DNA of 64,000 nucleotides from IMG/VR virus record IMGVR_UViG_3300034272_001354, positions 1 through 64,000 of that record. One strand, 5' to 3'. The position numbers and the translations under genes were made by a program. The DNA comes from a virus. The notes below the pieces were generated by a model. The model had not been told where the DNA came from and searched no databases. It saw nothing but the letters and a program-made list of their open reading frames with translations. The stretch's first letter is position 1, and each line of letters opens with the position of its first letter. Positions 11,580 through 64,000 of the stretch are shown here, one piece after another.

Positions 11580-12410
11580 ATGATAAATTTTAATACAGAG
11601 TACTATAGTAATAATTATTACTTCTTTTTGAAAGAGAGAGCGGACAAAATCTCCTTATATTATTCTATTGCGGATACTTTAACTGAATCTCGAAAGAATG
11701 ATGAGAGAATTGACTTCGATAAAAAAGATTCTAAAAAAGTTAAAAATATTGTTGGAAATGTTTTAAAATCTAAAACAAAAGTTTCCAAAGACGCATTAAC
11801 CAAAAAGTTAAAAAGTATTAAACCTAAAAAAGAAATTGATGAATTAGTTGATTCTGATGGAACAATGTTAAGTTCAAAAATACCATTTCTTAATCAAACT
11901 TTAACACCACACAAAACTACTGACCAAACTGTTGCTATGGCAAGAATTACGAATGACCCGGTAACAAGAGGTTATAGAGTTTATTATGGTGAAAGTGAAG
12001 AAGGTTCTGATGAAGTTATTAATGAGGTTGATTATTCTGAAGCATTTGGGTATGAAGAAACCAAAGATATGGATTTTAAAGATACGGTTAAAACACTTAA
12101 AGAAATGGGTGTTGAGAATGCGATTGAAAGAGCGAAACAATTTGGTAAATTACCAAAACAAAAAAGAGAAGATGGTGAATTAAAACAAAGATTATCTGAA
12201 AAAGATAGTATTGAAGAACAACAAAGAAAAAAAATGATTAAAATGGTTGAGGATATGTTAACCAAAAAATCATCAAATAATTCTGATGTAGTAAAAGATA
12301 AAGGAATAAGTAAAATATTATTAAAAAATATTCAATCAATTAAAAAAATTGCTGATAAAGAAGGTATCAGTATCAATATGTTAATCAAAGCGTTAAAATC
12401 TAATGAATAA
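11580..12410 (+). CDS. Hypothetical protein (probable late/head-associated)
   Basis: 276-aa ORF after TATTTAT motif. Confidence 0.75.
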   Translation: MINFNTEYYSNNYYFFLKERADKISLYYSIADTLTESRKNDERIDFDKKDSKKVKNIVGNVLKSKTKVSKDALTKKLKSIKPKKEIDELVDSDGTMLSSKIPFLNQTLTPHKTTDQTVAMARITNDPVTRGYRVYYGESEEGSDEVINEVDYSEAFGYEETKDMDFKDTVKTLKEMGVENAIERAKQFGKLPKQKREDGELKQRLSEKDSIEEQQRKKMIKMVEDMLTKKSSNNSDVVKDKGISKILLKNIQSIKKIADKEGISINMLIKALKSNE

Positions 12411-12873
12411 AGATTTATATGGAAATACCGTTCAATTACCTGAAGATGTTGTAGAATATTTACAACAATGCTTTGATTCTGCAAACACAGATGATTCAAC
12501 CATTGAAGGATTTAAAAGAAATCAAGAATTAAGAGATAGTCGTGAAACCACTTATCAACAATTAAAACGAATGAAAAATTGGTTTGATAATTTTAATGGT
12601 CTTGAAAATGATTTACCTTTTATTTTGAATGGTGGACACTATGTAAAAAATTGGGTTAACGACACATTAGGTGGAATGAGAAATAATGTATATATGGGTA
12701 AGAAATCAAAATCTGAAGTTTTACCAAATCAATTTATACAAACTCACACTAAAGATAATTTAAATACAATGAATAGACAAAGTAAAAGTCATAGTTCAAC
12801 CACCGGTAATATTAACAAAGATATCACAGAAAGTTTAAAAAGAATAAACGAATTAATAAAAAAAATAATTTAA
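12403..12873 (+). CDS. Hypothetical protein
   Basis: 156-aa ORF ending ITESLKRINELIKK. Confidence 0.75.
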   Translation: MNKDLYGNTVQLPEDVVEYLQQCFDSANTDDSTIEGFKRNQELRDSRETTYQQLKRMKNWFDNFNGLENDLPFILNGGHYVKNWVNDTLGGMRNNVYMGKKSKSEVLPNQFIQTHTKDNLNTMNRQSKSHSSTTGNINKDITESLKRINELIKKII

Positions 12874-56214: not shown

Positions 56215-58260
56215 ATGACAGAATCTATGGATGGTGGAAGTAACGGTGGAAATAAAGCAGTTAAAACTGATTCATCAACTCCCGTATTAGACAATTTTAG
56301 TAGAGATTTAATAAAACTTGCCGAAGAGGGTAAACTTGACCCGGTGGTTGGTAGAGAAAGAGAAATCACTCGAATTGCACAAATCCTTTCACGTAGAAAG
56401 AAAAATAACCCAATTATTATTGGTGAACCTGGTTGTGGTAAAACCGCAATTGTTGAAGGTCTTGCCATTATGATTTATAATGGGGATTGTCCAAGAAACT
56501 TAATGGACAAAAGAATTGTGTCATTAGATATGACATCAATTGTTGCGGGAACAAAATATCGTGGACAATTTGAAGAAAGAATGAAAGTCATTATCGAAGA
56601 ACTTCAAAACGAACCAAACATCATTGTATTCATTGACGAAATCCACACAATCGTTGGAGCAGGTAATTCATCAGGTTCAATGGACGCGTCGAATATCTTC
56701 AAACCAGCACTTGCTCGTGGAGAGATTCAATGTGTTGGGGCAACCACTTTGGATGAATACAGAAAAAACTTTGAGAAAGACGGAGCGTTAGAAAGACGTT
56801 TCCAAAAAGTTGTTGTGGATGCTGCAACCAAAGAAGAGACATTAATCATCCTTAAAAATGTAAAAGACAAATACGAGAACTACCACAAGGTAACTTATAC
56901 TGATGAAGTATTGTCTGTATGTGTTGATTTAGCAGACCGTTATATCACAGATAGAGAATTCCCGGACAAAGGATTCGACATTATTGATGAGGTTGGAGCG
57001 AGAAGTCAGGTAGATGTGAAAATGCCAGATTCAATTGAAAAATTGAAACTTCAAGCGTCAAACATTAAACAAGAAAAAATTGATGTAGTAAAACAACAAC
57101 GATACGAGGAGGCGGCAAACCTACGTGATAAAGAAAAACGTATCTTAACCAAACTTGAAGCTGAAAAGAAAAAGTTTGAAGAAGAACTTCTTACACACAA
57201 AAAAGAAATCACTTTGGATTTAGTTTATGAAGTGGTTTCCAATATGACAAAAATTCCAGTTACCAAATTAAATGCTGATGAAACCAAACTATTGTCAGAG
57301 ATGGAAACAAATCTATCTGATAAAGTTATTGGACAATCTGAAGCAGTTTCAAAGATTGCAAAATCAATCCGTAGAAACAGAATTGGTATTAAAGACCCGA
57401 ACAAACCAATCGGTTCATTCATCTTTTTAGGTTCAACAGGTGTTGGTAAAACATACTTGGCAAAACAACTAGCGAAACAAATGTTCGGTAGCGAAGATAA
57501 TATGATTCGTGTGGATATGTCCGAGTACCAAGAAAAACACACCATTTCAAGATTAATTGGAGCACCTCCGGGATACGTTGGATACGATGAAGGTGGACAA
57601 TTAACCGAACAAGTGAAAAACAAACCTTATTCTGTAATTCTATTTGATGAAATTGAGAAAGCAAACAAAGATATCTTTTCAACACTTCTTCAAGTATTAG
57701 ACGATGGTCACCTTACCGATGGTATGGGGAGAAAGATTAACTTCAAAAATTGTGTCATCATTATGACATCAAATGTTGGAGCTAAAAAATTACAAGATTT
57801 TGGTTCAGGGGTTGGTTTTAAAACAGGAGCTAGTTCTTATGTAGAAGAAGAATACAAACGTGAGACACTTAAAAAAGAACTTAAGAAATTCTTTACTCCG
57901 GAATTCTTAAACAGAATTGATGAGGTTGTTATCTTTAACTCTTTGGTTAAAGAAGACGTTAAGAAAATCGTTAAATTGGAATTGGACAAACTATCTAAAA
58001 GATTGGTTGGATTGAAATATAACATAACATTTGATGAAAGTATTTTAGAACTAATCTCTGAAGTTGGATTTGATGAAACCTACGGGGCAAGACCAATCAA
58101 AAGAGCTATCCAAGATAAGATTGAGGATTTTGTATCTGAAGAGATTATCAAAGGAAATATGGTGGAGGGTGTTCCATACACCCTTGTATCCGTAGAGAAA
58201 GAAGTGGTGGTCAAAACAGAACCTACCAAAAAGACAAGAAAGAAAAAAGAGGACAATTAG
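56215..58260 (+). CDS. clpC: ClpC-like AAA+ unfoldase lacking the N-terminal domain
   Basis: Two Walker A motifs ([16 protein letters not shown]), GTKYRG pore loop, UVR motif [18 protein letters not shown] ClpP-docking loop. Confidence 0.88.
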
Positions 58261-58272
58261 TCCTCTTTTTTT
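58243..58272. terminator. Bidirectional terminator
   Basis: AAAAAAGAGGAC-AATTA-GTCCTCTTTTTT. Confidence 0.8.
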
Positions 58273-58280
58273 ATATTAAA

Positions 58281-58703
58281 TTATTTTTCAAAACTCATAA
58301 GAAACCTTTCAAATTCTTGTAAAATATTAGGTTTTGACAATAAAGGAAACTTTTTAGGTTCAATTGCTAATCCCATTCCGTGAATTTTATCTTTAGTTCC
58401 TACCTGACTAGGTTCTTTAACTTTTTTGGTTTTAACAATAGCATAATCAGGATTAAAAGTAACAAATAACGTTAATTTTTTTTCAGGTATATTTTTCATA
58501 AATTTTAATTCAGAACCCCCTGTTTCTATCGAATAATTAAGTTTTCTCAAAACTGAGTCTAACATTTGAGGTGTTACCTTTTTTTCTTTTTTAGGAGTAG
58601 GAGTTGGTACTCCCTGTTCAGAAATTACATTTTTTTTACCTGAGTGCATCTCAAGGATTCTATTTTTCTCATCTTGAGAAATGTCATTAAATAAATTTTT
58701 CAT
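58281..58703 (-). CDS. Leader-bearing hypothetical protein
   Basis: MKNLFNDISQDEKNRILEMHS leader shared with 37393..38523. Confidence 0.7.
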   Translation of the reverse strand: MKNLFNDISQDEKNRILEMHSGKKNVISEQGVPTPTPKKEKKVTPQMLDSVLRKLNYSIETGGSELKFMKNIPEKKLTLFVTFNPDYAIVKTKKVKEPSQVGTKDKIHGMGLAIEPKKFPLLSKPNILQEFERFLMSFEK

Positions 58704-58732
58704 ATCGTTATCTTTTTATTATAAATATATCG

Positions 58733-61075: not shown

Positions 61076-61471
61076 GGGGGTAAAATGGTATTGACTGGCA
61101 TATCTACTTATTTGGGGCACGTAGTGAGAAGTTTCCTATCACTTAAATCTATGGATGACAAAATTATAAATGGCAACATTTTAAACAAAATGGCTCTAGT
61201 AGGTCTTGTACGTCAAGACGAGCTTGTGAACGTAGCGTAAGCAAACACACATTCGGGCCGGTGAGCATTACGCCTAGGAACAGAAGCTTTTACAAAGGTG
61301 TGGTACCTATCCGAAAAGGTACAAGTGGAGGATTAGTTCTCAATAAACCGAACCACTCAAAAATAAGGGAATTGTGAAATTTCGGATTGTTAGCTTAAAC
61401 AATGTCCTAAACGTGTAGTCCTGAACACTTAGGGTGAGCAACACGAGGCTTCGAAGCCTCTACCTCCACCA
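61076..61471 (+). ncRNA. ssrA: tmRNA
   Basis: 5' GGGGGTA pairs with 3' TACCTCC-ACCA including G3:U70; GTATTGAC D-like region; TTCGAA T-loop; ATAAAT|GGC resume context; tag ORF 61172-61240; smpB nearby. Confidence 0.92.
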
Positions 61472-62793: not shown

Positions 62794-62827
62794 AAAAAAA
62801 GGTGTCACATTTCTGTAACACCTTTTT
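62794..62827 (-). terminator. Terminator of the large ncRNA
   Basis: AAAAAGGTGTTACA-GAAA-TGTGACACCTTTTTTT. Confidence 0.85.
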
Positions 62828-63714
62828 GGCTAATACGATGAGAATACTCGTGTTATTAAGAATCTTCGGAAGGATTATTGTTTCCCTTCTTTTCCACCAT
62901 CTTTTGAATGGTAATCCTCAGTGACAATTGGTTAGACCAATTACTCCTTGAGATATCATCTACTCTCTTATTATTCAACTCTCTTCAACCTTGCGGGCTG
63001 ACTCCGGATTCGACTCCGTAGAGGTTTTTCGTAAGAATACATTCTGACTTGCGGTCATCCTGTGCAACGAACGGCTCGTTACTATGTAGTCACCTTGTCG
63101 ATGATACCTGACAGACACTTTTGCTTATGTATCTTTTTAGTTTTACTTAAAATGTCCTATAAGTTAATTGTGTTGTGGATGTGTCCAAGTAGAGGTCTGT
63201 CGTAAGCTTCGTTATCTTTTGAACAACAAAATACTAATCTACTCGGTAGAGTGTCCCCACTCTCATATTTTAAGATTACTTCAAACTGACATCTTGGTAG
63301 ATGTTTCGTAAGGTTAGTAGCGACACCACTCGTTCTCTAACTTACCTTTCGGTTTTAAGTCCCCTTTGATATTGGAATCCGTAATTATAAGGTTGGATGA
63401 CCCTATTTCTCACATAATCCCTATCGGTTATTCTTGTTGGTGTTCCCACCTCAACCTGACGACCCACATCGCCCGGTCACCCAACCACTTTCTCTAAAGC
63501 GTTGCCCTCAATACTGAAGGTCAGGTGATATCCGACTTGTATACTCGAGCTCCCTTTCAGAAGCCGCAGAACCAATAACACTAATGATTCCACTTTATCC
63601 CGGTTTCCCGGTTTATTTAAGGATGATATACCACCCATTATCGTTTCTTACATCACCGAAGTGTGTAATGGATAATCTAAAATTTCTAAGAACGTTTAAG
63701 GTTTCCCTCAATTG
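62828..63714 (-). ncRNA. Large (~0.9 kb) structured ncRNA, GOLLD-like (family assignment tentative)
   Basis: No ORF of 60 aa or more, raised GC, own promoter and terminator, many hairpins with UUCG/GNRA loops, adjacent to tRNA-like genes. Confidence 0.75.
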
Positions 63715-63719
63715 TTTTA

Positions 63720-63749
63720 CAAAGATAAGTGATTTTTTTCATTTGTCAA
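63720..63749 (-). promoter_or_regulatory. Promoter of the large ncRNA
   Basis: TTGACA (63749-44) ... TATCTTTG (63727-20). Confidence 0.75.
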
Positions 63750-63787
63750 GCACTTTATAAAACTTTTTTTTAATTTTTTTTTATTTG

Positions 63788-63878
63788 TGGTATCGGCGGG
63801 GTTCGAACCTGCGGCACAGAGTCTTTCGTTACTCTTGCTCTACCAAGGAAGATAAATCTTCCACTGAGCTACAATACC
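63788..63878 (-). tRNA. Aberrant tRNA-like RNA (hairpin inserted in D-loop, 8-nt anticodon loop; no amino acid assignable)
   Basis: GGTATTG/CGATACC-A acceptor, GCTC/GAGC D-stem, AGAGT/ACTCT stem with loop AACGAAAG, GGTTCGAACCC T-arm. Confidence 0.75.
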
Positions 63879-63889
63879 ATGTAAAAAAA

Positions 63890-63964
63890 ATGTGGGTGTA
63901 TGCTCTACCATCTGAGCTACGGATAAATCCGGAGGGATTTGAAACCTCGACACGACACCCACAC
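63890..63964 (-). ncRNA. Circularly permuted tRNA-like RNA (YrlA-like topology)
   Basis: 5'-GTGTGGGTGT-CGTGTC-GAGGTTTCAAATCCCTC-CGGATTTATCCG-TAGCTCAGATGGTAGAGC-AT-ACACCCACAT. Confidence 0.75.
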
Positions 63965-64000
63965 TAATCTTTCAATATTTTTATGAACTTTATTTCTTGT

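Follow-up and report, generated by a model that had tools for sequence, protein, structure and literature searches.

A stand-alone, Ro60-less YrlA-type tRNA head encoded upstream of GOLLD RNA in lake phages

At positions 63890-63964 of the viral record IMGVR_UViG_3300034272_001354, the minus strand carries the parts of a tRNA in permuted order, which raises the question of what a phage might do with such an RNA (hereafter, the mimic). The IMG/VR source record is 76,982 bp long and is judged 26% complete; the window, i.e. the whole stretch of DNA that was analysed, comprises its first 64 kb, and the complete relatives of this lake phage measure 308-322 kb (308,574, 322,477, and 318,164 bp). The original prediction described a terminal stem enclosing a variable-loop-like segment, a T-arm, a hairpin in place of the acceptor stem, and a D-arm. 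Direct reading located all of these elements on the minus strand where they had been predicted, and the MFE fold is identical:

63964-63955, minus strand: 5' strand of the terminal stem, GTGTGGGTGT (RNA GUGUGGGUGU), which pairs with 63890-63899
63954-63949, minus strand: variable-loop equivalent, CGTGTC (RNA CGUGUC), from direct reading
63948-63932, minus strand: T-arm, GAGG(T)-TTCAAAT-(C)CCTC, with stem GAGG/CCUC and T-loop UUCAAAU
63931-63920, minus strand: sealed acceptor hairpin of 4 bp, CGGA-TTTA-TCCG (RNA CGGA-UUUA-UCCG)
63919-63902, minus strand: U8-A9 and D-arm, TA, GCTC-AGATGGTA-GAGC (RNA UA, GCUC-AGAUGGUA-GAGC)
63901-63890, minus strand: AU linker and 3' strand of the terminal stem, AT, ACACCCACAT (RNA AU, ACACCCACAU)

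The MFE fold of 63882-63966 is exactly the four-helix structure of terminal stem, T-arm, acceptor hairpin, and D-arm, and its energy of -28.3 kcal/mol compares with -16.7 +/- 2.7 for 200 dinucleotide shuffles, none of which folds as well (0/200). With this fold z-score of -4.2, the proposed permuted tRNA topology, with a closed acceptor end and an opening at the anticodon end, is borne out. The 5' strand of the terminal stem occupies the place of the 3' strand of a tRNA anticodon stem, and the sealed acceptor has 4 bp, compared with the 7 bp and free ends of a tRNA. By direct reading, the nucleotides of the tRNA elbow are all present (U8, A14, G15/C48, G18 G19, A21, U54 U55 C56, and A58), with the last C of CGUGUC able to form the G15-C48 Levitt pair. 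One detail had to be amended, as the T-arm is present but its fifth pair (tRNA 53:61) is mismatched, U.C in this phage and A.C in relatives, so that the arm consists of 4 bp and a 9-nt loop rather than the predicted 5 bp and 7 nt. Since the G53-C61 pair that closes the T-loop is thereby replaced, the elbow of the mimic may differ from that of a tRNA. The mimic lacks the 7-bp free-ended acceptor, the CCA site, and the 7-nt anticodon loop of a functional tRNA, and ARAGORN called no tRNA at its position. Lacking both of a tRNA's working ends, it can neither be charged nor decode, and there is no anticodon loop in which it could be cut. Circularly permuted tRNA genes also occur in the red alga Cyanidioschyzon merolae, where, as in the mimic, the 3' half is encoded ahead of the 5' half; unlike the mimic, however, these have full acceptor stems and anticodon loops and are processed to normal chargeable tRNAs.

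The mimic is a genuine phage gene that encodes a small non-coding RNA. In IMG/VR and JGI metagenomes, pattern scans recovered a family of ~66 loci, partly redundant across the two collections, and its 14 distinct core sequences served as the basis of a family alignment and covariance model, which finds one strong copy per genome at 92-103 bits (four genomes). RNAalifold returned the identical four helices for the family. The original prediction had looked to related phages for covariation, and it is found there: 95.8% of cells are paired among the 14 distinct sequences and seven pairs change on both sides, a result matched by 0/500 shuffles and lost in slid controls, which collapse. Compensatory changes affect 4/10 pairs of the terminal stem (e.g. 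GUGGGUGU/ACACCCAC vs GUGGACGU/ACGUCCAC) and 3/4 pairs of the acceptor hairpin (CGGA/UCCG, CGGU/ACCG, and CAAU/GUUG), while the search patterns held the T and D stems fixed, which is why these do not vary within the family. In a wider set, which adds an element-2 paralog and the Cluster M copies described below and whose model-fitted alignment leans to the structure of the model, 96.4% of cells are paired and 14/22 pairs are compensatory, including 8/10 in the terminal stem and 4/4 in the acceptor hairpin; here the T stem covaries too. It should be noted that the family members are closely related, and both their conservation and their synteny with GOLLD RNA could therefore largely be inheritance. 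A blastn search of the GOLLD and mimic region against 50,697 phage records gave no match to cultured relatives.

An Rfam scan placed three other RNAs near the mimic (GOLLD, an odd tRNA, and a tmRNA), which we list together with the signals that flank the mimic:

64032-64004 of the contig, just past the window end, minus strand: promoter-like site TTGACA-N17-TATCTT, upstream of the mimic
63965-63997, minus strand: 5' leader, AAGAAAUAAAGUUCAUAAAAAUAUUGAAAGAUUA, A/U-rich, ~33 nt, with an invariant UUGAA and a predicted 5' end
63879-63889, minus strand: U-rich trailer, UUUUUUUACAU, which leads straight into the next gene
63788-63878, minus strand: tRNA-Phe-like mimic, RF00005 at 37.5 bits, with a D-loop hairpin and an 8-nt anticodon loop
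63749-63722, minus strand: GOLLD's own promoter, from promoter reading, a twin of the mimic's promoter
62835-63749, minus strand: GOLLD RNA, RF02032 at 306.5 bits, with a variable 5' domain
62835-63246, minus strand: GOLLD 3' domain as modelled in Rfam
61076-61471, plus strand: tmRNA, from Rfam

Given the promoter-like site at 64032-64004, the mimic RNA probably starts near 63997 and carries a leader of ~33 nt. The Bacteroidota promoter consensus is TTTG...TAnnTTTG, and the promoters of the mimic and of GOLLD both also fit this type. The leader consensus, AAAGUUCWUAAAAWUAUUGAA..., is kept in nearly all of 39 aligned distinct sequences, even at loci whose upstream promoter gave way to other sequence. 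The predicted species of ~75 nt thus describes the core, which is indeed 75 nt, but not the product of the gene: its own promoter and conserved leader argue for an RNA of probably ~110-120 nt. At its other end, the transcript probably extends as far as the tRNA-like gene, whose start is 11 nt past the stem, or beyond. No promoter was found in this 11-nt gap, and the tRNA-Phe-like mimic is probably co-transcribed with the permuted one; among the 59 family loci with enough flank, 50 have a tRNA-Phe mimic within 400 nt of the permuted mimic and nine do not. Consensus folding and leader-trailer and leader-GOLLD comparisons revealed no conserved pairing partner for the leader. Leader-trailer pairs are predicted, but they differ among sub-types and none appears in the consensus fold, and pairing of the leader with GOLLD was rejected because each sub-type has its best duplexes at another place in GOLLD.

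Several further RNAs were observed in and around this island. Past the window end, at contig 64160-64262 on the minus strand (L001:2262-2364, plus strand), lies a further tRNA-like RNA, whose acceptor stem is GUCAGGA/UCCUGAC and whose T-arm is normal, whereas its D and anticodon region is aberrant; it received no ARAGORN call, and its end just precedes the mimic's promoter. In the tRNA array of the same record, G000:C1:76680-76763 (minus strand) scores 16 bits on the family model and 17 bits on the YrlA model and is probably a tandem-tRNA junction. Some relatives carry, after the tRNA-Phe mimic, a second and divergent permuted tRNA mimic (element 2) that is absent from the window's phage. Element 2 occurs at L005:2769-2858 and G006:C1:263950-264040 (both minus strand) and also in L052, L088, L063, and L264; it scores 34-36 bits on the family model and has a central bulge or C.A mismatch in its terminal stem and a ~25-nt insert in its "acceptor". 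In relatives, the stretch from the tRNA mimics to GOLLD also contains a conserved structured RNA (~130-250 nt) that is absent from the window (L018, reverse strand, about 12350-12600; also L026, L056, L063, and L128), which is framed by UUCUGUGAUAAG...CUUAUCACAGA and contains AGACCUAUUACAGCAGA.

To which class of RNA does the mimic belong? A permissive Rfam scan returned a single meaningful match, to RF02553 (YrlA), which covers the full length at 40.0 bits (E = 3e-7). This upholds the YrlA resemblance noted in the original prediction, at a score below the RF02553 gathering threshold of 69 bits. The match rests on the T-arm, sealed acceptor, and D-arm, while the outer, Ro60-binding part of the model aligns via weak A-U pairs only. 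[quoted passage not shown] 2014, PMC4201824). Like YrlA, the mimic has its parts in the order T-arm, closed acceptor hairpin, and D-arm and ends where the anticodon stem opens; it has the elbow-forming nucleotides and a D-arm that reproduces exactly the GUAGCUCA...GGUAGAGC block invariant among YrlA RNAs, adjoins tRNA genes, and is of similar total length if the leader is counted. Unlike YrlA, it has a mismatch in place of G53-C61, a conserved leader that is single-stranded, a sub-cut-off score, and a linkage to GOLLD rather than to rsr or rtcB. It also has no Ro60-binding module, as had been predicted from its short stem: the terminal stem is a perfect 8-10 bp helix with no bulge or internal loop.

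The low RF02553 score of the mimic is by itself not decisive, since Ro60-linked YrlAs of Bacteroidota score alike. Our pattern scans of bacterial genomes found YrlA-type RNAs beside TROVE/Ro60 genes, with RtcB or RlaP alongside, in Flavobacterium and Pedobacter, and the Ro60-adjacent YrlAs of Flavobacterium, Pedobacter, and a Bacteroidia MAG reach 40-43 bits and are missed at threshold, whereas proteobacterial YrlAs pass it at 70-78 bits. The Ro60-adjacent Bacteroidota YrlAs (L145:3984-4045, L153:7239-7296, L203:1531-1588, and L174:1690-1937) have a common 5' block, GUGUCGUAGA...GUUACUUCG, and they also share with the mimic the GUGUC ahead of the T-arm. Neither GNCGAA nor the Bacteroidota GUGUCGUAGA...GUUACUUCG (GUCGUAGA) motif is present in the mimic, whose leader has UUGAA only. 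The original prediction had further noted that no Ro60 gene is in the window, and the wider search agrees: a TROVE gene was found in 0/15 family records, namely the window's 77-kb record and 14 related ones, three of them complete genomes. The same search detected TROVE in 21/31 other phage records with permuted tRNA folds and is thus able to detect a phage Ro60. That the mimic is a stand-alone, Ro60-less YrlA-type tRNA head on a plain stem, transcribed from its own promoter, is therefore well supported.

RtcB, PolyA_pol/CCA-adding enzyme, and Band-7 genes are not consistently present in the family genomes, and none lies near the mimic; Band-7 occurs only in two complete family genomes (G006 and G007), 100-220 kb from the mimic. 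This bears upon the b7a-tRNA, a tRNA-like RNA that has been predicted next to genes for RtcB and Band-7 proteins (Burroughs and Aravind 2016, as described in Wang et al. 2018). The b7a-tRNA resembles the mimic in being a tRNA-like non-coding RNA proposed for RNA repair in which Ro60 is not necessarily involved; the mimic differs in its setting, with Band-7 more than 100 kb off in two genomes and no RtcB alongside. Another class of permuted folds was observed in phage tRNA arrays (L015, L030, L060, L087, and L127, all viral, and the bacterial L238), with a recurring UACAGCA in its flanks and TROVE in 0/4 of the records tested (L015, L030, L060, and L127).

How might such a head act by itself? 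The YrlA head adopts a true tRNA L-shape, and a protein that binds the elbow is its expected effector (Wang et al. 2018, bioRxiv 10.1101/312249); competitive inhibition of an anticodon nuclease has also been proposed for this head (Hughes et al. 2020). From these two points, and from the several non-decoding tRNA look-alikes in the island, we arrive at a reading to which we give roughly even chances of being right: that the mimic is a Ro60-independent elbow mimic, which titrates or recruits a tRNA factor that recognises shape. In such a scheme, the 75-nt core, which folds as a permuted tRNA and matches the YrlA "effector" head, here on a plain 10-bp helix, would offer its intact D/T elbow to a factor that senses the shape of a tRNA. 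The factor would then be either titrated by the mimic as a decoy or brought elsewhere by the mimic as an adaptor, and the mimic may act as one unit of a phage RNA island that comprises tRNA mimics, GOLLD, and the tmRNA. For the mimic, the data show the fold with its conservation and covariation, the lack of Ro60, the promoter, and the linkage to GOLLD, whereas the ends of the transcript, its binding partner, and its action as decoy or adaptor are what we infer. The main rival explanations are a companion of GOLLD and a Y RNA for a host Ro60, neither of which is fully exclusive with an elbow mimic.

The position of the mimic relative to GOLLD is highly regular. Of the 39 family loci whose downstream flank reaches 1.5 kb or more, 38 have the GOLLD leader 140-1054 nt downstream of the mimic on the same strand, with a variable set of inserts in the interval (tRNA-Phe mimic, second permuted mimic, and another structured RNA). 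As the family is one clade, this synteny alone could be inherited gene order. We therefore turned to a comparison set of 113 further GOLLD loci from other viral contigs (114 with the MrMagoo locus L420), which was scanned with the family covariance model and a purpose-written structure scanner over 2.16 Mb, both strands counted. A simple regular expression for permuted folds found none near other GOLLDs; the covariance model or structure scanner was needed. The structure scanner reports only the lake-phage family, one likely false positive, and four G+C-rich loci, which belong to four completely sequenced Cluster M mycobacteriophages (MrMagoo, Aziz, Rey, and Reindeer). In Cluster M, the gene order is tRNA-Trp, tmRNA, tRNA-Asn, mimic, GOLLD, and tRNA array, with the mimic ~340 nt upstream of the GOLLD Rfam start on the same strand. 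In MrMagoo (NC_053515.1), mimic and a GOLLD RNA of 182 bits occupy an 848-nt unannotated gap between tRNA-Asn and tRNA-Arg at 57859-58706; in the records of Aziz, Estes, Rey, and Reindeer, a "hypothetical protein" is annotated under the stretch that matches this gap.

Similar to the lake-phage mimic, the Cluster M mimic is Ro60-less (a TROVE gene was found in 0/4 complete genomes), has a short terminal stem, and lies directly 5' of GOLLD with a tmRNA and tRNA array near. Unlike it, the Cluster M mimic is G+C-rich, its sealed acceptor is mostly 7-8 bp (5 bp in Reindeer), and a normal tRNA-Asn stands directly upstream in place of a promoter and leader. We provisionally group the two, as the lake family and Cluster M share the permuted fold, the missing TROVE gene, and a position within ~1.1 kb upstream of GOLLD on the same strand. 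Their common descent is uncertain, since the Cluster M copies reach only 27-31 bits on the family model. The tmRNA was considered as the true linked partner of GOLLD and was rejected: ARAGORN calls a tmRNA in 16/114 GOLLD loci, and only two of these 16 have a mimic (Cluster M L326 and L350).

Could the mimic then be a dedicated companion of GOLLD, whether as client or cargo of its cage, as a helper in the assembly or processing of its 5' end, or as a guard against host decay of structured RNAs? We regard this as unlikely. In its favour, the mimic sits immediately upstream on the same strand in 38/39 family loci, and the arrangement is repeated in Cluster M despite a different host phylum, G+C content (about 60% vs 33-40% in the lake phages), and genome size. 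No GOLLD was seen near Ro60-linked YrlA loci, which is in keeping with a companion role. It has also been proposed that GOLLD cages house tRNAs, and a tRNA is embedded in some GOLLDs (Kretsch et al., bioRxiv 10.1101/2024.12.08.627333; review PMC12990946, citing Morgado et al. 2020). These adjacent or embedded tRNAs are likewise tRNA-shaped RNAs linked to GOLLD in phage tRNA islands, but they are ordinary or pseudo tRNAs in normal order, whereas the mimic is permuted, sealed, and without an anticodon. Against a companion role, the mimic is not a general feature of GOLLD, as 110/114 other GOLLD loci are without it (four Cluster M loci carry one and the sole other match is the likely false positive). 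Moreover, GOLLD has its own promoter in the window's phage, its base-pairing with the mimic leader is not conserved, and both RNAs sit in tRNA islands, which may explain their proximity.

A second alternative is that the mimic is a genuine Y RNA that uses the Ro60 (Rsr) of the host, such that an RNA supplied by the phage would redirect or block RNA decay or repair by host Rsr-PNPase or Rsr-RtcB. We judge this to be improbable. In its favour are the YrlA-like head, with a score equal to that of Ro60-adjacent Bacteroidota YrlAs, and the rsr-YrlA-rtcB loci found in Bacteroidota such as Flavobacterium and Pedobacter. Rsr and YrlA are also both present in M. smegmatis, on which the Cluster M phages grow (Chen et al. 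2014, PMC4201824). The UUGAA(A/G) of the leader also loosely resembles GNCGAAN0-1G, a motif proposed for Rsr binding (Chen et al. 2014, PMC4201824). A Ro60 ligand would nonetheless be hard to reconcile with an uninterrupted terminal stem, a leader with no conserved 3' partner, and the absence of both the proteobacterial and the Bacteroidota motif, and phages that use Ro60 usually bring their own gene, as in the 21/31 records above.

The remaining explanations fare worse. It is very improbable that the mimic is a processing or termination element only, whether by terminating upstream transcription with its stable stem and U-run or by capping the 5' end of the tRNA-Phe mimic precursor. Eight U do follow the stem in the window's sub-type, and the next gene begins 11 nt on with no promoter between, but the U-run is confined to this sub-type, with none in the commonest relatives or in L275, the mimic has its own promoter directly upstream, the tRNA-Phe mimic is missing beside it in 9/59 loci, and a terminator would have no need of a conserved T-arm, D-arm, sealed acceptor, and tertiary nucleotides. 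An intrinsic terminator was specifically rejected: none was called after the mimic, the "loop" would be a 55-nt three-arm structure, and the U-run is not conserved. Scarcely credible is an origin by decay from a pair of tandem tRNA genes, or a permuted gene that yields a working tRNA: the island is tRNA-rich and tandem tRNA junctions weakly match the same model, but the terminal and acceptor helices are kept by compensatory changes across clades, a 4-bp acceptor closed by 4 nt has no room for a discriminator base, CCA, or processing sites, and there is neither an anticodon loop nor an ARAGORN call.

As the layout of the mimic is that of YrlA, it is the Ro60-less form and the linkage to GOLLD that are not described in the literature searched, in which GOLLD and YrlA/Y RNAs are connected only by both being listed. 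The structures of the YrlA head and of the GOLLD cage are both solved. A natural, Ro60-independent head argues that the head is a functional unit by itself, and its position beside GOLLD in two unrelated phage groups offers a concrete and testable link between the two RNAs. A more speculative extension, which we hold to be possible but doubtful, is that the Ro60-free head is a functional partner of the GOLLD nanocage (client, adaptor, or guard against host decay of structured RNAs) and that this pairing is conserved from Bacteroidota jumbo phages to Cluster M; if true, it would join the two RNA classes. The Cluster M phages are cultured and tractable on M. smegmatis mc2 155, so experiments on the mimic are feasible now. 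There is also a gap in annotation, as the Rfam YrlA model misses both Ro60-linked Bacteroidota YrlAs and stand-alone heads, and mimic and GOLLD alike are unannotated in the MrMagoo record.

Lastly, 13 RNA runs contain at least half of the sampled words from window 62800-64000. In four lake or freshwater metatranscriptomes, contigs are deep over 62850-63646 (GOLLD) and none covers the mimic or the tRNA-Phe mimic, a comparison that is based on contigs only, in which a small, structured, and probably modified RNA such as the mimic would be poorly captured. Window position 63646 (L001:1747) is a common end base of GOLLD contigs in two independent metatranscriptome studies; it lies ~70 nt downstream of the predicted GOLLD start, which hints at a processed 5' leader of GOLLD.
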